Virus genome (UHGV): UHGV-1373278
Source of the DNA: a virus
DNA: 8,576 bases
Direction: 5' to 3' (one strand)
Part shown: piece after piece, positions 163 to 8,576 of the stretch
How positions within the stretch are numbered: position 1 is the stretch's first letter
How the letters are laid out: every line of letters begins with the position of its first letter
Program-made: the position numbers and the translations under genes
Notes under the pieces: model-generated
What the model was told of the DNA's origin: nothing
The model's input: only the letters and a program-made list of their open reading frames with translations
The model's database searches: none

Positions 163-963
163 TTATATTATTTTTATTTTTGGAAGCACATCATTCATGA
201 CTTTGACTCTTCCTCCATCCTTCATTTTATAATGATGCCAACTATCTGATTGAGCAATCGCATCATCGTGTATTTCTTTCGATATAGCTAATAAGTCCGT
301 ATTCATCCATGAAAATATACCTTCATCTACAAACTGTTTTGATATCAGCTCATAGTGGCTATTCTTTTTTACCGCAACATACAATGGATATTTTCTTTCG
401 ATATTTTCAGCTAAGCTGTCAAATGATATTATTGAAAAGTCATCCCGTTGTTGGCCTCTAATTAATGAGGTTTTTAATACATTGCCTTCATATTCCGATC
501 TGCGGCCGTGAACTAATACATACTTGAAGTTAAAGGGATTTCTTGCCATATGAGCTGGCTCAATAAAACCTTGTAATGTGTTGTTTTTAAAGTGATTTCT
601 ATTTGATTCCTCATCAATCCATGCTCTCCATGTATTTATCTGCTGTAACGCCATATTAAAATCAGCATGAAAGTCTGTGGATTTATCTTTAAAGTATTTT
701 GAGGATGGTTTTTCTATTTCAACAAGTACCACATTCCAATTGTCTGAACTTTTTGCGAGATATACGAAATCTGGTTTGTAATCACTAGATAATGGTAATT
801 TTCTAAGTACGGTACAAAAATGAATCCCATGATTTTGTTCAAATTCTCTTGGGATGAACATGGTGTTTTCTTCTAAATAATTTTGGTAAACTTGTTCAAC
901 TTCATTTCTATCCAGCAATTGCATATATTCATTTCTTTTCTGAACAGCATCTTGACCATTCAT
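163..963 (-). CDS. Hypothetical protein, 266 aa, with PD-(D/E)xK-like nuclease signature; AT-rich accessory cargo gene
   Basis: Long uninterrupted ORF in visibly AT-rich DNA, where chance ORFs of this length are unlikely. ATG start at 963-961. Motif KPDFVYL followed 13 residues later by a hydrophobic strand and VVLVEIEKP (residues about 64-86) resembles the restriction-endonuclease-like D ... (D/E)xK core. Function not established. Confidence 0.65.
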   Translation of the reverse strand: MNGQDAVQKRNEYMQLLDRNEVEQVYQNYLEENTMFIPREFEQNHGIHFCTVLRKLPLSSDYKPDFVYLAKSSDNWNVVLVEIEKPSSKYFKDKSTDFHADFNMALQQINTWRAWIDEESNRNHFKNNTLQGFIEPAHMARNPFNFKYVLVHGRRSEYEGNVLKTSLIRGQQRDDFSIISFDSLAENIERKYPLYVAVKKNSHYELISKQFVDEGIFSWMNTDLLAISKEIHDDAIAQSDSWHHYKMKDGGRVKVMNDVLPKIKII

Positions 964-1105
964 ATAGTAGTTCCATTTTTAATTAGATTAGCTTAAGCAC
1001 TTTTTGGTGATATCGAATTTTTAGCGTTTAAGGTGGCCGAGAGCACCGCGAAGCGGTTCGGGGTTCAGTGACACCCGAACTTTACCGTGGTTTCCCGCGG
1101 CGGAG

Positions 1106-1528
1106 TTACCAGTAATATGACTTTCTTCTGTGCCACCAATAAAGTAGGCCGTATCCGACGATAAGAATCCCGAAGAACATCAGCGACATTCCCCAGCCAG
1201 TTCCGTACCACGAAACCATATCATCGAAAACTAACCCGCCCATTTCACGAACTCCGGCTGCTTCCTTAAGAATTGGTTTGAATACCGGAATCAGAAGGGC
1301 GATCGCAAGTGGAGCACACCAGCGAACAAGACCAGTTTCCATTTTGATCCCGAAAAAGATCCCCGCACCGACAACAAGCAACCAGACTATCAGGCCAGGC
1401 GCAGTTTCCAGTGCTGTTTGCCATTCAACATCGAAAGTTTTCATTAGCCAGGCAACAACTGCCAGACAGAAAGCAAATACGCCCACGACAACCAGTTCAA
1501 CGCCGCTTGTTTCGTTATTTCTACTCAT
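1106..1528 (-). CDS. Small integral membrane protein (about 140 aa, about 4 predicted TM helices)
   Basis: Start preferred at the ATG at 1528-1526 (MSRNNETSG...), preceded by an AGGA about 8 nt upstream. The ORF-track start at 1675 would overlap the upstream gene and its terminator hairpins. Protein has several long hydrophobic stretches (LVVVGVFAFCLAVVAWL, GLIVWLLVVGAGIFFGI, WCAPLAIALLIPVF, MSLMFFGILIVGYGLLYWW) and a basic C-terminus. Confidence 0.55.
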   Translation of the reverse strand: MSRNNETSGVELVVVGVFAFCLAVVAWLMKTFDVEWQTALETAPGLIVWLLVVGAGIFFGIKMETGLVRWCAPLAIALLIPVFKPILKEAAGVREMGGLVFDDMVSWYGTGWGMSLMFFGILIVGYGLLYWWHRRKSYYW

Positions 1529-1554
1529 CCTTTTGATCCTTTTTCGCTGTTCAA

Positions 1555-1616
1555 AACTCGCACAATAAAGAACGTGCAGTGTAGGTAATACTGCACGTTT
1601 GTACCATTCGTGGTAC
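1555..1616 (-). terminator. Two tandem hairpins downstream of the small regulator gene (- strand terminator candidate)
   Basis: Hairpin 1: GTACCA (1601-1606) / TGGTAC (1611-1616) with loop TTCG. Hairpin 2: 10-bp stem AACGTGCAGT (1571-1580) / ACTGCACGTT (1590-1599) with a 9-nt loop. On the - strand, hairpin 2 is followed by CUUUAUUGUG. Confidence 0.45.
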
Positions 1617-1799
1617 TTAATCCTTTTGTTTGGCAGACATGAGATCTTCTGCTGCATCTTTAGAGTAGTTATCAATCAGATAACCTAAAATCTCTGTCCA
1701 TGTAATTGTTTTTCCTAGTTTTACACTGGCATTTATAGCCAGTCGTTCTAGTTTCATTTTTCTTTCTTCCGTCACGTTATAAGTCGTGCGCTTTGCCAT
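1617..1799 (-). CDS. Small DNA-binding regulator candidate (60 aa, ribbon-helix-helix-like)
   Basis: ATG at 1799-1797. N-terminal pattern KRTTYNVTEERKMKLERLA (beta strand then helix) with a G-K-T helix cap fits an RHH (Arc/CopG-like) fold. Divergent from gII across a repeat-rich intergenic region, the position expected for a phage repressor. Confidence 0.5.
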   Translation of the reverse strand: MAKRTTYNVTEERKMKLERLAINASVKLGKTITWTEILGYLIDNYSKDAAEDLMSAKQKD

Positions 1800-1839
1800 T
1801 TTTTACGCTCGTTCAATGCAATATTTGAAGTGAGTATAC

Positions 1840-1968
1840 ATGCTCATGAACTCATATCATCCAAGCCTCTTGAACTCACTAGCTCACTGGTGTAATGTTA
1901 AAACACTAATGAACTACTGAACTCATGTGTTAGTAAGTCGTCATTTTTGCAATTTTGAGGATTTATTC
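1840..1968 (+). promoter_or_regulatory. gII upstream control region: iterated TGAACT(C/A)(A/C) repeats and a candidate sigma70 promoter; possible (+) origin region
   Basis: Four direct copies of TGAACTCA-like octamers at 1847-1854, 1871-1878, 1911-1918 and 1919-1926. Candidate -35 TTGAAC (1870-1875), 17-nt spacer, -10 TAATGT (1893-1898). GAGG (1957-1960) lies 8 nt before the GTG at 1969. Several short dyad symmetries (TCATGA, TGAGT/ACTCA) at 1830-1855. Confidence 0.4.
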
Positions 1969-3842: not shown

Positions 3843-5165
3843 ATGAGAAGGAAAATATTAATTCTTTCCGCTGTCCTCATTTCTCCTTTTTCACATGCTG
3901 AGTCATGGGAAAGCATTACTAAATCCACTTATCAAAGTTCTGCCTACGCTGAAAGTAAGCAAATAACCAATCAGGATGGCTCTAAGATAACGGTTTACTA
4001 TATTGATGCTGCTATGCAGGCCTCCGCTTGTCAGGGTGCTAAATCCAGTGCTCAGAGTGTATTTACTCGGATTAAACCAACTTATGAGGGTATCTGGCCT
4101 GATTCTGAATTCCGTCTTGTTTTTACTGGCGATTGTACTTACAGCGATTCACCAGGGCAGAAGGATAAATATTGGTCTTTAACGGCTTATATTGTTGGTA
4201 ATATTCAGCGTTCTGTTCCTGATGAAAAACCTACTGACCCGACACCAGAAGAAATTTGTGAAGCGAAGCCGCCAGAAGAAGGTGTATTTAATAATGTTGA
4301 TTCATATGATGGTGGTCGCTATATCTACTATAACGGCTGTGAATATGAGGCTACTGGTGTCATTGTTTGTCAGGGTGATGGTACTGTTTGCGCTGCAACA
4401 TGGAAGCCTACAGGTGCTGTAGCTGACCCCTCTGATAAACCCTCAACCCCCCAAAATGGTGGTGGTGAGTCTGGCGGTGGTGAGTCCAGCGGTGGTGAGT
4501 CCAGCGGTGGTGAGTCTGGCGGTGGTGAGTCCGGCGGTGGTGAGTCCGGTGGTGGTGAGTCCGGCGGTGGTGAGTCTGGCGGTGGTGAGTCCGGTGGCGG
4601 TAGTTCTGGCGGTAGTTCTGGCGGTGGCTCTAGTGGTTCCAGTCTTTCTAAAGGTGATATTCAGTCTGCGATCGAAGGTGCTTCACCCAAAATAGCCAGC
4701 GATATTCATGATAAATTAACGGAGAAAGACACTTCATCAGATGATAAAAAAAATGCCGATGAACAAACCAGGAATAATATAAATCGTCTTGACGATTCCA
4801 TTAACAATCTTACGCGGGGGGCTGGCCGTTTTGCTGACCCTTCAGGTGGTGATTCTCGTTATGGAAAGGGCGACTCTGAATTAGATGGCGCTTCTACTTT
4901 GGCTGATTCTGAATTGGGAATTGAAAAGGATTCTCACGGTGCTTTATGGGAAGCGTTTTTAAATAAAGGTGCTATGCTGCCTAATTTACCCAATGGTAAC
5001 GGCTGCTCTGATTTTATTATTTTTCCCGGAGAGGTTTATCAGATTGATATTGGTTGCGATAAATTACTGACTATTAAAGATGTTCTTTCATGGGTTTTTT
5101 ATTGCCTTACGTTCTGGTATGTCTTTACTTCTTTAACTTCATTGCTTCGCAAAGGGGGTGAGTGA
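3843..5165 (+). CDS. III: Minor coat / adsorption protein pIII (440 aa)
   Basis: ATG at 3843 with signal peptide [19 protein letters not shown]. Cys motif [25 protein letters not shown] resembles the Ff N1 TolA-binding motif (CLWNATGVVVCTGDETQCYGTWVP). GGGES-repeat linker follows. C-terminal ...[40 protein letters not shown] resembles the Ff pIII C-terminus. The 3699 ORF-track start is an out-of-context upstream extension overlapping gVIII. Confidence 0.9.
4458..4640 (+). repeat. Tandem 15-bp in-frame repeat array encoding the (G-G-E-S-G/S) linker of pIII
   Basis: Nine near-identical 15-bp units GGTGGTGAGTC(T/C)(G/A)GC(G/T) from about 4461 to 4595, then degenerate Gly/Ser codons to about 4640. 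Confidence 0.85.
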
Positions 5166-5506
5166 TGCCTTTATTATTAGGTATTCCTGCATTGTTGCGT
5201 TTTCTTATTGGTCTTGTTCCTTTGTTTATTGGCTATGTGGCGAGTTTTTTAGCTCGACTTGCTACCAGAACAGGATTAATCGCCTTTGCATTGGTCGCAT
5301 TAATTACAACAACTGTTACGCTTTTAATGCAGTACCTTGCTGAGGTCATGTATAACGGTTTACCTGCTGATTTCTCCCATTTAATGGCGTCTGTATTGCC
5401 TGACCATTTTCAGGCGTGTGTTAACGTTATTATGGTTACTCGTATCAGTGTTTTTGTTTTCGATTTAAAACAAAAGTTTCTTGATTATGCAAACAGGGTG
5501 ATTTAA
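5165..5506 (+). CDS. VI: Minor coat protein pVI (113 aa)
   Basis: ATG at 5165 overlapping the gIII stop TGA (ATGA). [24 protein letters not shown]... resembles Ff pVI (MPVLLGIPLLLRFLGFLLVTLFGY...). C-terminal FVFDLKQKF matches Ff FIFDVKQKI. Confidence 0.9.
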   Translation: MPLLLGIPALLRFLIGLVPLFIGYVASFLARLATRTGLIAFALVALITTTVTLLMQYLAEVMYNGLPADFSHLMASVLPDHFQACVNVIMVTRISVFVFDLKQKFLDYANRVI

Positions 5507-6601
5507 ATGGCGGTTTATGTAGTAACAGGCAAATTAGGCTCAGGCAAGACACTTGTTAGTGTTTCCAGAATACAGGAAAGACTTGCTAAGGGTTGTCCTG
5601 TTGCCACTAATCTTGATCTTAAATTGCATAATATGCCTATGGTTGGGCGTTATGCGAAAAAAACGCGCGTTATTCGCATTCCTGACAAGCCTTCATTAAA
5701 TGATTTACTTGCTATTGGTATTGGGAATACATCTTACGATGAATCCCGTAATGGCCTCCTTGTACTTGATGAATGTGGTACTTGGTTTAATTCCCGCTCA
5801 TGGGGTGATAAAGACAGACAACCTGTTATTGACTGGTTTTTACATGCCAGAAAATTAGGCTGGGATATTATATTTTTGATTCAGGATATTTCGATAATGG
5901 ATAAGCAAGCTCGTCTGGCGCTTGCTGAGCATGTTGTTTATTGTCGCCGTTCAGATAAATTAAACATTCCTTTTGTTGGCTCCATTATGAATTTGGTTTC
6001 AGGGGCGAGATTTTCTTTACCAAAGGTACACTTTGGCATTGTCAAATATGGTGATAATGTTAATTCAATCACTGTTGATAAATGGATATATACAGGAAAA
6101 TCTCTTTATTCTGCTTACAATACCAAACAAGCGTTCACAGATAATTATCCTCATGGCGCATTTTCGCTTTTGCCACCATTTATCACGCACGGTCAATTTT
6201 CTGTTCACAGAGGATTTAATTATTATATGCGCCTCACTAAAATTTATTTTCGCAAATCGAACCGTCTTATATTAATGCTTTCTTTTTTGGCGCTGGGGCT
6301 TGCGTTTGGTTTCTGGCTCCAGTCTGGAAAGAATGTTGATGAAATCTCAGCTATTAAATCTGCTTATGCTGAACAGGCGAGGGCGGTAACGCCTGATTCG
6401 TCCAGTAACTTACCCCGACTTTCTATTAATTCTTTTTCACAACTTGGCTTTGACGTTTCCGTTACGTTTGTTGATGCTAAAGGTATGAAATATCAGTATT
6501 TTGATTTGATTAAAGATGGTTATTCCGTTGATATTAAAGATGCCTGTCGTGTTGTTATTAGAAAAGGCCGTTATTTACAGACTGTTACCTGTCAGGAGTA
6601 A
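5507..6601 (+). CDS. I: Assembly ATPase pI (Zot-like, 364 aa)
   Basis: ATG at 5507 immediately after the gVI stop. N-terminus MAVYVVTGKLGSGKTLVSV (Walker A) is nearly identical to Ff pI MAVYFVTGKLGSGKTLVSV. Extensive similarity continues (LLVLDECGTWFN, IIDWFLHARKLGWDIIFL). Confidence 0.9.
   Translation: MAVYVVTGKLGSGKTLVSVSRIQERLAKGCPVATNLDLKLHNMPMVGRYAKKTRVIRIPDKPSLNDLLAIGIGNTSYDESRNGLLVLDECGTWFNSRSWGDKDRQPVIDWFLHARKLGWDIIFLIQDISIMDKQARLALAEHVVYCRRSDKLNIPFVGSIMNLVSGARFSLPKVHFGIVKYGDNVNSITVDKWIYTGKSLYSAYNTKQAFTDNYPHGAFSLLPPFITHGQFSVHRGFNYYMRLTKIYFRKSNRLILMLSFLALGLAFGFWLQSGKNVDEISAIKSAYAEQARAVTPDSSSNLPRLSINSFSQLGFDVSVTFVDAKGMKYQYFDLIKDGYSVDIKDACRVVIRKGRYLQTVTCQE
6227..6601 (+). CDS. XI: pXI, in-frame internal translation product of gene I (124 aa)
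   Basis: In-frame ATG at residue 241 of pI (MRLTKIYFRKSN...), the same position and context as Ff pXI (Met241, MKLTKIYLKKF...), followed by a TM segment. Purine-rich AGAGGA lies about 12 nt upstream. Confidence 0.5.
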   Translation: MRLTKIYFRKSNRLILMLSFLALGLAFGFWLQSGKNVDEISAIKSAYAEQARAVTPDSSSNLPRLSINSFSQLGFDVSVTFVDAKGMKYQYFDLIKDGYSVDIKDACRVVIRKGRYLQTVTCQE

Positions 6602-6608
6602 TATTATT

Positions 6609-7874
6609 ATGCGCTCTGTTATTGTTGCTTTTTTATTTGCCTGTTCATTCTGCGTTTCTGCTGAAACTGTTAATTTAAATAATTCATCTGTTCGCTCATT
6701 TGTTCAGTGGTATTCTTCAAAAACTGGCAAGCCTGTTATTGTTAATCCTGATATTAAAGGAAACGTAACCGTATTTAATGCTGATGTTAATCCAGCAAAT
6801 ATTGATGATTTCTTTAAGTCTGTTCTGAATGCTAACGGTTTTGTCATGCTTTCTGGCAATCCTGCGGTAGTCTCTTTGCCGTCTAAATTACCTTCACAGA
6901 TGGTTTCGGATTCCGATGATTCTGATAACCAGTCTTATGATACTTTTCCTTCTGAGCCATCTTACCAGCCAGTACCTGTGGCGCTTACGGTCAGAAATTT
7001 TAAGCTGACAAAAGTTAGATCGTCCGATGTTCAGCAACTGATTAAAATTTATCTTGATTCTAATGGTGGTGGTAATGTCGTGGATTATCCAGGCAATAAC
7101 TCGCTGATTGTTTCTGCGCCTGACGAGCTGCTGCCGGTTCTGTCCGATTTTATCAATTCTGTGGATGTTGCCCGCGATCAGGTTCTCATTCAGTCGCTGA
7201 TGTTTGAAACCAGCTTGTCTGATGGCGTTGATTTATCGTTTGCGGCAGGTTCTGCATCCGGTCATAAGGTTGCGGGGGGCTTTAATACTTCTGCACTGGG
7301 TAGCGCTCTTTCTACGGCGGGCGGTTCTTTTGGTATTTTTGATGGTAACGTGTTGGCGCTGTCTCTGCGTGCTGTCCAGAGTAATTCACGCTCTAAGGTG
7401 ATTTCAACGCCGCGTATTCTTACTCAGTCTGGTCAGACTGGTTACATTTCCGTAGGTAAGAATGTGCCGTTTATCACCGGAAAGGTAACGGGCGAATCTG
7501 CCGGGGTAAATAATCCGTTTCAGACTATCGAGCGTCATGATGTTGGCGTTTCTCTCAAGGTAACGCCTGTTGTCATGGGTAACGGGCAACTAGTTCTGAC
7601 TATCGACACTCGCGCTGATTCAATCAGCAATGATGATCAGGCATCCGATATTATTACTAATCAGCGCCAGATTCAGACGACAGTCCAGATTAAGGATGGT
7701 CAGACGTTGTTATTGGGGGGGCTTATCGATTCATCGTTCAGCAATGCCGAGCGTTCAGTTCCAGTTATAAGTAAAATTCCTCTTATAGGCTGGATTTTCA
7801 GTAGCAAGGCAGACAGCAATGAACAGCGTATTATGTATATTTTGCTTACAGCACATATCATTCGTCCACTTTGA
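6609..7874 (+). CDS. IV: Outer-membrane secretin pIV (421 aa)
   Basis: ATG at 6609 with AGGAG (6594-6598) about 10 nt upstream. Signal peptide MRSVIVAFLFACSFCVSA. Strong similarity to Ff pIV throughout (VRSFVQWYSS..., NVPFITGKVTGESAGVNNPFQTIERHDVG..., DGQTLLLGGL..., SKIPLIGW-FSS). The 6516 ORF-track start is an upstream extension inside gI. Confidence 0.9.
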   Translation: MRSVIVAFLFACSFCVSAETVNLNNSSVRSFVQWYSSKTGKPVIVNPDIKGNVTVFNADVNPANIDDFFKSVLNANGFVMLSGNPAVVSLPSKLPSQMVSDSDDSDNQSYDTFPSEPSYQPVPVALTVRNFKLTKVRSSDVQQLIKIYLDSNGGGNVVDYPGNNSLIVSAPDELLPVLSDFINSVDVARDQVLIQSLMFETSLSDGVDLSFAAGSASGHKVAGGFNTSALGSALSTAGGSFGIFDGNVLALSLRAVQSNSRSKVISTPRILTQSGQTGYISVGKNVPFITGKVTGESAGVNNPFQTIERHDVGVSLKVTPVVMGNGQLVLTIDTRADSISNDDQASDIITNQRQIQTTVQIKDGQTLLLGGLIDSSFSNAERSVPVISKIPLIGWIFSSKADSNEQRIMYILLTAHIIRPL

Positions 7875-7943: not shown

Positions 7944-8252
7944 ATGGATTCTTATGGGATTTTATCTGCTCTGGCAGAACGAACGATTACAGCGGAAGAA
8001 GCAAAAACAATGACACTTGCAGCCAGAAGTTCTTCGGCTCAGGTAAATGAAGCATCACTTGCTCTGTTACTGATTGATAATACTCTGGATGCGATCAAAG
8101 CAGCTGCCAGTGAAGGGAAAGGATACACTTTACTTCCTTCTTATGAGATTTCTGTAAAAGCCATTGATTTAGCAGAAGAATTTTTAAGGAAACAATGCGG
8201 CTATGTTATTGATAACCAGAATGGCGTAAGGACGGTCTATTGGTTTATATGA
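7944..8252 (+). CDS. Hypothetical protein (102 aa), accessory ORF downstream of gIV
   Basis: ATG at 7944 with a weak GGGG(T) SD-like element. Ala/Leu-rich, predicted largely helical, no signal peptide. No recognisable homology from memory. Followed by a structured region and a T7 run (8319-8325). Confidence 0.45.
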   Translation: MDSYGILSALAERTITAEEAKTMTLAARSSSAQVNEASLALLLIDNTLDAIKAAASEGKGYTLLPSYEISVKAIDLAEEFLRKQCGYVIDNQNGVRTVYWFI

Positions 8253-8369
8253 TAACCCCGGACAATGACAAAACTTGCTTTTGTTAGTGTCAGGGGTTGG
8301 CCAAGCCGAACAATTCTGTTTTTTTAGCGTTATTGCTGATTCGGCGCGGCAGCATTACGAGGAGATAAA

Positions 8370-8576
8370 ATGCAATTTTTCACATCCAGCGATACTGTAA
8401 TGTTATGTGCGAAGACCTGCGATCGCTGTGGTCGCCATGCGAAGACGGTGGTAGATGACATTGAGTTCAATGAGTTTCTGTCTGTTAATCACTTAGCTGG
8501 ATACGGTTCAATTTTTGGTGACAGTAATCGCTTAAAACTGGATTTATGCCAACATTGCCTGAAAGACGTCCTGGGC
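8370..8576 (+). CDS. Cys-rich (putative zinc-ribbon) hypothetical protein, 5' partial; continues beyond the window
   Basis: ATG at 8370 with strong GAGGAG RBS (8359-8364). Frame open for 69 codons to the window end. Contains C-x3-C-x2-C (CAKTCDRCG) and C-x2-C (CQHC) motifs. Missing from the ORF track because no stop falls in the window. Confidence 0.5.
   Translation, partial: MQFFTSSDTVMLCAKTCDRCGRHAKTVVDDIEFNEFLSVNHLAGYGSIFGDSNRLKLDLCQHCLKDVLG

Follow-up and report, generated by a model that had tools for sequence, protein, structure and literature searches.

The 8,576-base window analysed here (the whole stretch of DNA presented above, UHGV virus genome UHGV-1373278) is a single unit of a filamentous (Inoviridae) prophage of the dif-integrating CUS-1/Ypf type, a phage group described earlier (PMC4266046). 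The region under study, positions 1106-1799 together with the spacer that leads to the replication gene gII, is read as the leftward control region of this prophage, with a probability put at roughly 0.6; it would have three separable parts, namely a ribbon-helix-helix (RHH) repressor with its operators, a pair of tandem hairpins that may form the core of the plus-strand origin, and a membrane gene carried as a cassette. Computation gives good support to the regulatory half of this reading, an immunity region of an already known phage group in which an RHH repressor takes the place of the helix-turn-helix (HTH) protein RstR; as an immunity module it is ordinary in kind, and several of its details are previously undescribed. 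The features that belong to the repressor part are the following:

1617..1799, minus strand: 60-aa RHH regulator with an ATG start, positional equivalent of RstR / YPO2273 (phrog_2503)
1843..1925, plus strand: four direct TGAACT(CA) repeats, at 1847, 1871, 1910 and 1918, candidate operators
1833..1860, minus strand: candidate leftward promoter suggested by a consensus scan, with -35 ATGATA, a 16-nt spacer and -10 TATACT
1870..1896, plus strand: candidate gII promoter read from the sequence, with -35 TTGAAC, a 15-nt spacer and -10 TGTAAT

Regarding the regulator, a preliminary description of this DNA had called the 60-aa protein RHH-like and had placed its gene in the position of a repressor; both statements are borne out, the first by the predicted structure and the second by the orientation of the gene, which is divergent from gII. 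The AlphaFold model, obtained with a 58-sequence alignment, had a mean predicted local distance difference test (pLDDT) score of 92, and it consisted of an extended N-terminus, a helix at residues 11-28, a tight Gly turn and a long helix at residues 34-59, which is the arrangement of an RHH protein. The open reading frame (ORF) is under purifying selection, with a ratio of nonsynonymous to synonymous substitution rates (dN/dS) of 0.03-0.09, and its product matched the phrog_2503 profile over its full length (3.6e-34 over residues 1-60), a protein with hundreds of relatives and whose function is not annotated in PHROGs. In addition, 12 of the 58 homologues matched the ParG profile weakly, below threshold.

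As for these homologues, they are encoded divergently from the replication gene in Vibrio phage VAI2 (where the protein is annotated as RstR-like), in the CTXphi allele named 'environmental RstR' and in Dulem virus 53, and the same orientation is found in prophages of Yersinia, Salmonella and Citrobacter. The 60-aa protein had no match in NCBIfam, where the RstR family is represented by an HTH_XRE-type model (NF041951); the alternative regulator of the NU14-type prophages, a 148-aa HTH protein, matched that model weakly (7.9e-4, 19.7 bits, with a cut-off of 80). The 60-aa protein is not a member of the canonical HTH RstR family but its positional equivalent, with a different predicted fold; the RstR-like arrangement itself is present, with the regulator gene divergent from the replication initiator and an immunity-specific spacer between the two. 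YPO2273 of Ypf-phi and the CUS-1 regulator come from the same phage group as the window, and the review on Ypf-phi names YPO2273 as a putative repressor, calling it an RstR homologue at the rstR position with an undemonstrated role (PMC4266046). The searchable CUS-1/Ypf literature describes no RHH fold, TGAACT repeats, hairpin origin or 140-aa protein.

A further homologue was noticed in phage If1 (L002), where an unannotated 63-aa RHH protein with 58% identity is encoded at 5119-5310 on the minus strand, inside the 'major intergenic region' and likewise divergent from the replication gene. An IS200/IS605-type insertion with tnpA and tnpB (ORF348), at 5388-7086, lies directly upstream of this gene and parts it from the replication gene.

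The preliminary description had pointed to the repeats at 1840-1930 as DNA that the 60-aa protein might bind, and in the comparative data they behave like its operators, with binding itself being what we infer from the sequences. In the NU14-type prophages, the block 1628-1969, that is the regulator and the spacer, gives way exactly to the 148-aa HTH gene and another spacer, which contains an inverted repeat; the flanks are 92-98% identical to the window on the left and 80% on the right, where similarity resumes at the gII start codon. Across the RHH subfamilies, the hexamer repeated upstream of the regulator varies with the N-terminal strand of the protein, and this co-variation was observed as follows:

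N-terminal strand KRTTYNVTE: repeated motif TGAACT(CA)
N-terminal strand KRTTYTLAE: repeated motif TGAATTCA
N-terminal strand KRTTMAI[VT]: repeated motif ATGCAT / CATGCA
N-terminal strand KRYVYNVRE: repeated motif AATGAA
N-terminal strand GDTTVRINE: repeated motif GCATGC / ACGCAT

The layout of the sites is kept across the subfamilies: a pair 8 bp apart at about -124/-116 and single sites at about -77 and -53, counted from the ATG of the RHH gene. The loci L041-43 have an 86%-identical RHH protein and the same TGAACTCA repeats, with a gII that bears no detectable similarity to that of the window; in L006, on the other side, gII is 86% identical, the regulator is an HTH protein and none of the repeats is found. 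From this comparison, the repeats follow the regulator and not the initiator.

The same loci decide on another explanation of the repeats, in which they are iterons of the gII replication origin and not repressor operators. The repeats lie just upstream of gII, and it is established that gpII of the Ff phages binds repeated sequences within its origin, as iterons would require; however, L041-43 keep the repeats next to a dissimilar gII, the NU14-type gII is 86% identical and yet has none of them, and the repeat sequence shifts with the N-terminal strand of the RHH protein. The iteron explanation was rejected because the repeats track the RHH gene and not gII, and it is considered highly improbable.

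Returning to the operator reading, the positions of the repeats with respect to the candidate promoters agree with a role in repression. The only minus-strand promoter-like site that the consensus scan found in this region of the window has repeat 1 in its spacer, and a GTATACT motif about 35 nt upstream of the ATG is conserved in several RHH subfamilies. On the other strand, repeat 2 overlaps the -35 of the candidate gII promoter and repeats 3 and 4 lie just downstream of this promoter; the promoter scan did not call it, having a G at position 2 of the -10, and the block TTGAACTCAyTAGCTCA..TGTA is conserved in L041/L013. The proposed mechanism follows from the overlap of the repeats with the two divergent promoters: dimers of the 60-aa RHH protein would bind the four TGAACT repeats of the 169-bp spacer through the N-terminal strand, and the repressor bound there would switch off gII, with it the replication and virion genes, and its own transcription. 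That the 60-aa protein is an RHH repressor that binds these repeats and shuts off gII, making the region the immunity determinant, is judged very likely.

The predicted fold of the 60-aa protein matches that of Omega (pSM19035), ParG (TP228), CopG and Arc/Mnt, and the window resembles the systems in which RHH repressors act on repeat arrays, for it has several short same-strand repeats with one pair 8 bp apart. ParG binds ACTC boxes with an 8-bp periodicity. Omega binds direct heptad repeats (PDB 2bnw title). Unlike Omega, ParG, CopG and Arc, the 60-aa protein does not belong to a sequence family of this kind, and its helix 2 is unusually long (34-59).

As for the second part of the region, the preliminary description had reported tandem hairpins between the 60-aa and the membrane genes; these are indeed present, and they fill the 88-nt spacer:

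1601..1616, plus strand: hairpin 1, palindrome GTACCA-TTCG-TGGTAC, abutting the RHH stop codon, candidate inverted repeat for gII binding
1571..1599, plus strand: hairpin 2, AACGTGCAGT-(9 nt)-ACTGCACGTT, with a 10-bp stem and the loop GTAGGTAAT, candidate plus-strand nick hairpin

The fold energy of the spacer was -24.7 kcal/mol, with z = -2.6 versus shuffles. The stems of hairpin 2 were invariant in 11 diverse loci, in which the adjacent membrane gene had a synonymous divergence (dS) of 0.1-0.8. Hairpin 1 occurred in two forms, GTACCA..TGGTAC and GTCTCA..TGAGAC, that are two symmetric double changes apart; the first accompanies gII genes 92-100% identical to that of the window, the second those that are about 86-91% identical. 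Considering all the loci fetched, hairpin 2 was observed in 47 of the 48 that have the gII family of the window, the remaining one being cut by a contig end, and in none of the 32 that do not (0/32). This association holds with either an RHH or an HTH regulator, and with the membrane gene, Fic/Doc or another gene downstream.

Read along the plus strand, the order is stem, loop GTAGGT-AAT, stem, and directly after it the palindrome GTACCA-TTCG-TGGTAC; in the M13 origin, GAGTCCAC-GTTCTTTAATA-GTGGACTC (loop GTTCTTT/AATA) is followed by the inverted repeat TTGTTCCAAACTGGAACAA. The window has the Ff-type layout: on the plus strand, a loop ending in T/AATA adjoins an inverted repeat, and the arrangement is specific to its initiator family. 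It shares with the M13/f1 origin the location on the coding strand upstream of a gII of the Phage_CRI family; unlike in Ff, the stem sequences are unrelated and the repressor gene lies between the candidate origin and gII. The plus-strand nick made by RstA in CTXphi falls in Ig-1, next to rstR (PMC8265649), which is the corresponding position. On account of the association with gII, the M13-like layout and the position of Ig-1 in CTXphi, the hairpins were read as the core of the plus-strand origin used by gII, and this assignment, made from sequence comparison, is probable. The loop of hairpin 2 (GGT/AATA) would carry the nick site, predicted at T1586/A1587, and the palindrome of hairpin 1 next to it would bind the gII protein; the RNA of hairpin 2 made from the minus strand probably also attenuates read-through from the repressor promoter.

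The hairpins could instead be terminators or attenuators only; they would close the repressor transcript, take no part in replication and leave the membrane gene to be transcribed independently. They begin directly past the repressor stop codon, the spacer folds better than its shuffles (the z value given above), and hairpin 2, as RNA of the minus strand, forms a 10-bp stem with a 9-nt loop, followed by the tail UCUUUAUU; this RNA folds stably, but the terminator scan did not call it, the 9-nt loop being the cause, and no promoter for the membrane gene was found in the promoter scan. Moreover, a terminator needs pairing only, yet the stem sequence is invariant across lineages whose neighbouring gene has the dS values reported above, and hairpin 2 goes with the gII family although the regulator gene lies between them, and is retained in loci where another gene stands downstream. 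A role limited to transcription seems possible but rather unlikely; the origin and terminator functions are not mutually exclusive and can coexist. The preliminary description had regarded the hairpins as separators of transcription units; they appear to be more than that, given that they track gII and resemble the Ff origin.

The location of the candidate origin also coincides with a boundary between modules. The breakpoints of other prophage classes fall at 1546-1627, with class B ending at 1627 and class C starting at 1546-1560, and the two classes overlap on the hairpins. In CTXphi, hybrid genomes are known to arise via origin-to-origin replication across tandem prophages, and the breakpoints at the hairpins fit hybrids of this type.

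In a Klebsiella spallanzanii prophage (L010), two copies of hairpin 2 were found at 4707 and 4932, 225 nt apart, between the HTH regulator and the membrane gene.

Taken as a whole, the region compares well with the RS region of CTXphi (rstR - ig-2 - rstA): in both, the genes of the repressor and the replication initiator point away from each other, related phages exchange the operator/promoter spacer as a unit of immunity, integration occurs at dif through a folded attP, and the plus-strand nick site, a candidate in the window, adjoins the far end of the repressor gene (PMC8265649). There are also differences: the canonical RstR of CTXphi, about 110 aa long, belongs to the HTH proteins (NCBIfam phage_RstR), whereas the 60-aa protein has a predicted RHH fold, has no match to that model, and is homologous only to the 'environmental RstR' / VAI 'RstR-like' allele (40-42% identity); besides, CTXphi has no membrane gene at the position after the repressor.

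The third part of the region is this membrane gene:

1106..1528, minus strand: 140-aa predicted inner-membrane protein with four transmembrane (TM) segments (phrog_4174), optional cassette, ATG at 1528

The ribosome-binding site AAAAAGGATCAAAAGG lies ahead of the ATG at 1528, and 140 aa is the length given by PGAP in the E. coli relatives. A longer ORF of 189 aa (1106-1675) was rejected as a real gene: its TTG start is inside the RHH gene, and the ATG at 1528 is where both the annotated gene and the conserved sequence start. The preliminary description of a four-TM protein of about 140 aa is confirmed by hydropathy, with four hydrophobic segments at about 10-29, 43-61, 67-83 and 112-132, and by the topology predicted with AlphaFold2 (AF2), which placed helices at 9-32, 36-62, 67-90 and 111-139. 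The distribution of charges in 24 members of the family (loops 1 and 3 acidic, the C-terminus basic) gives modest support to an N-in/C-in topology. The gene is under purifying selection (dN/dS 0.05-0.23), and its product matched phrog_4174 over the full length (7.5e-85 over residues 1-140), again with the function not annotated in PHROGs.

The family is small and linked to inoviruses: a full HMMER scan of 1.84 billion representatives returned 42 clusters, all of about 125-140 aa and none of them named, from Enterobacterales, Aeromonas, Vibrio and Methylobacter; P85 is invariant in the family, and P73, Y108 (of the WYG motif) and G125 are nearly so. The protein had no match in Pfam, NCBIfam or PADLOC, a Foldseek search with the low-confidence model found no match with E below 0.4 in PDB or BFVD, and tblastn against 50,697 phage records found no match. 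The genomic context of distant members comes from L037 and L042 only, as no loci were found in viral contigs for P0180, P0177 and P0195.

As for its genomic position, the membrane gene lies directly downstream of a regulator gene in 29 of 29 loci, and these regulators comprise at least five alleles: the RHH of the window, a 62% RHH variant, HTH148 and at least two further HTH alleles; homologues of the membrane protein at 38-41% identity likewise follow small RHH-like genes. The identical RHH protein, in turn, was found in ten distinct contexts, followed by the membrane gene in six, by Fic/Doc in three and by other genes in one. Across 5,426 complete E. coli genomes, 128 had the membrane gene, 49 the RHH allele of the window and 27 both of them adjacent. 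The membrane gene, which the preliminary description had paired with the repressor, is not its fixed partner, given that a 100%-identical RHH precedes the membrane gene, Fic/Doc or others, and that the membrane gene also follows HTH regulators; it is thus an accessory cassette that moves between phages and occupies the first slot of a cargo region in which defence-type genes are among the other occupants.

The exchange of neighbours also bears on the proposal that the 60-aa RHH protein is an antitoxin and the gene downstream its toxin (the membrane protein here, Fic/Doc elsewhere), the pair stabilising the prophage. However, at least three unrelated genes are found downstream of the 100%-identical RHH protein, and the membrane gene for its part also occurs after unrelated HTH regulators; hairpins and a distance of 88-150 nt separate the two genes, while typical type II pairs overlap; the RHH gene invariably points away from gII, and strand-specific repeats cover the promoters; and If1 and VAI2 carry the regulator without such a partner. 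A toxin-antitoxin pair is thus considered very improbable, and the reading of the 60-aa protein as a repressor is retained.

Regarding the function of the membrane protein, it would probably be expressed at low level in the lysogen by read-through past hairpin 2, and it may act at the inner membrane, for instance by blocking the Tol-dependent entry of other filamentous phages. The most plausible role for such a portable and dispensable four-helix inner-membrane protein would be exclusion or defence at this site, a tentative assignment whose chances are rather low; by association with Fic/Doc and defence cargo, it is a reasonable guess. PfsE, RexB of lambda and SieA of P22 are small prophage inner-membrane proteins that block other phages. 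RexB is a four-TM protein co-transcribed with the repressor. The preliminary description had drawn on a precedent of repressor and superinfection-exclusion genes paired in filamentous prophages, which does not hold: the one characterised case, PfsE of Pf4, is a single-pass protein of 30 residues encoded in the rightward core operon, not beside the repressor (PMC8764522). The 140-aa four-TM protein of the window differs from it in size and in the location of its gene, and it has no Pfam, PADLOC or fold similarity to PfsE, RexB or SieA.

A role without exclusion has about even odds: the protein would be a host-directed 'moron' (acting on the envelope, stress tolerance or virulence), or an aid to the assembly or tolerance of its own phage. 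In agreement with it, the protein has no homology or fold match to any exclusion protein, the gene is optional (128 carriers among the 5,426 E. coli genomes; of the 49 that have the RHH allele of the window, only 27), and CUS-1 and Ypf-phi modestly raise the in vivo fitness of the host through unknown genes (PMC4266046). The assembly part of this explanation is unlikely, in view of phages that have the same core genes without the membrane gene, and of the leftward accessory position of the latter. At the other end, the 140-aa protein might found a new inovirus-borne family of inner-membrane exclusion proteins that, independently of repressor immunity, would block a step shared by many filamentous phages, such as the Tol-dependent entry of DNA, with the cassette spread by origin-to-origin replication across mixed tandem prophages; this is doubtful, although, if true, such a spread would lead to what is seen, a membrane gene beside at least five repressor alleles and the origin hairpins.

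Several points weigh against the reading of the region as laid out so far. The 60-aa protein had no match to any Pfam or NCBIfam RHH model, the comparison of its profile with solved structures gave chance matches only (best E 0.7), and its model is a monomer, in which the strand-swapped dimer that defines the fold is not seen. As for the repeats, the cluster alone is only moderately unlikely by chance, a hexamer in four copies having arisen in 84 of 20,000 Markov simulations of the 169-nt spacer. For the hairpins, the resemblance to the nick site is, in sequence, a 5-base motif, and the two compensatory changes in hairpin 1 are probably a single event; many of the loci are close relatives, and the 47/48 versus 0/32 count rests on a handful of independent lineages and could partly reflect linkage. 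Finally, the AF2 model of the membrane protein is of low confidence (pLDDT 66), no promoter for its gene was found and the read-through across a 10-bp hairpin is an assumption, and nothing ties the protein to phage entry; Ypf-phi gives partial superinfection protection, yet appears to lack the gene: no Y. pestis member of the family turned up, and the attL-side ORFs described for Ypf-phi differ from those of the window (PMC4266046).

Pathogenic E. coli, Salmonella, Klebsiella and Yersinia, pandemic Y. pestis among them, carry filamentous prophages of the CUS-1/Ypf and UP-phi types at dif, and to our knowledge the control circuit of these prophages has never been dissected. The analysis supplies for it a predicted repressor fold with a likely operator, a specific candidate origin and nick site, and the site of module exchange. 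Current understanding is not overturned by it; rather, what is known of CTXphi is extended to the CUS-1/Ypf group, with a different repressor fold. The slot beside the repressor holds variable cargo with anti-phage genes (Shedu, Fic/Doc), which bears on how small filamentous prophages shape the phage resistance of their hosts.

Regarding the rest of the window, the genes on the plus strand are, in order, gII (Phage_CRI, 9e-70), gV, the coat genes, gIII, gVI, gI/Zot and gIV. Prophages of E. coli UM146, F11 and others have about 99% DNA identity with the window across about 90% of its length; they adjoin hipBA at dif, often as tandem copies, and the remaining 10% or so, which differs, is the cargo at 163-1040. 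Scans of positions 1-2100 with Rfam and for tRNAs found no known RNA. To the left of the membrane gene are two features:

163..963, minus strand: Shedu SduA anti-phage nuclease, 266 aa, variable cargo (PADLOC PDLC00378, 5e-111)
1043..1100, no strand assigned: conserved hairpin element GTTCGGGG-TTCAGTGAC-ACCCGAAC + CCGTGG-TTTC-CCGCGG, between the membrane gene and the cargo

SduA is full length in the PADLOC match, and it also matched Pfam SduA_C (PF14082; 2.4e-25, 90 bits, with a cut-off of 27). The preliminary description had called this gene nuclease-like and had joined it with the repressor and the membrane gene in one accessory operon. The nuclease identity stands, as Shedu SduA, but the gene is not a conserved member of an operon, and the three-gene operon was rejected: the SduA slot is hypervariable, with unrelated genes in relatives; the GC content is about 33% in the SduA gene versus about 49% in the membrane gene; and the conserved element 1043-1100 lies between them. 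The occupants of the slot in relatives include Fic/Doc, a Zn-ribbon and 159-aa pair, a 94- and 262-aa pair, a 155- and 123-aa pair, and a 369-aa gene; the Shedu allele of the window had no match in the 5,426 complete E. coli genomes.

As for the element at 1043-1100, it is 96% identical to the major intergenic region of If1, whereas identity in the coding DNA does not exceed 70%. Where the phage has another gII family, the element comes immediately behind the RHH gene, as does a variant of it in Dulem virus 53; window-type phages may or may not have it, and there it follows the membrane gene. It could be a second origin, the minus-strand origin or a packaging signal.

Three other observations concern the ends of the window. 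After gIV, positions 7944-8252 hold a conserved ORF of 102 aa, which is phrog_4115. Positions 8275-8576 joined to 1-27 encode a 77-aa 'mobilome' ORF with CxxC...CxxC, split across the ends; because this ORF runs from the window end into its start, the window is one circularly permuted genome unit. Finally, a long imperfect palindrome at about 66-158 has dif-like XerC/XerD arms in both halves (GGTGCGCATAA...TTATGTTGAAA and its partner); it is a CTX-type folded attP, in agreement with the Ypf-phi review (PMC4266046), and it is 96-97% conserved in each of the prophage classes compared.

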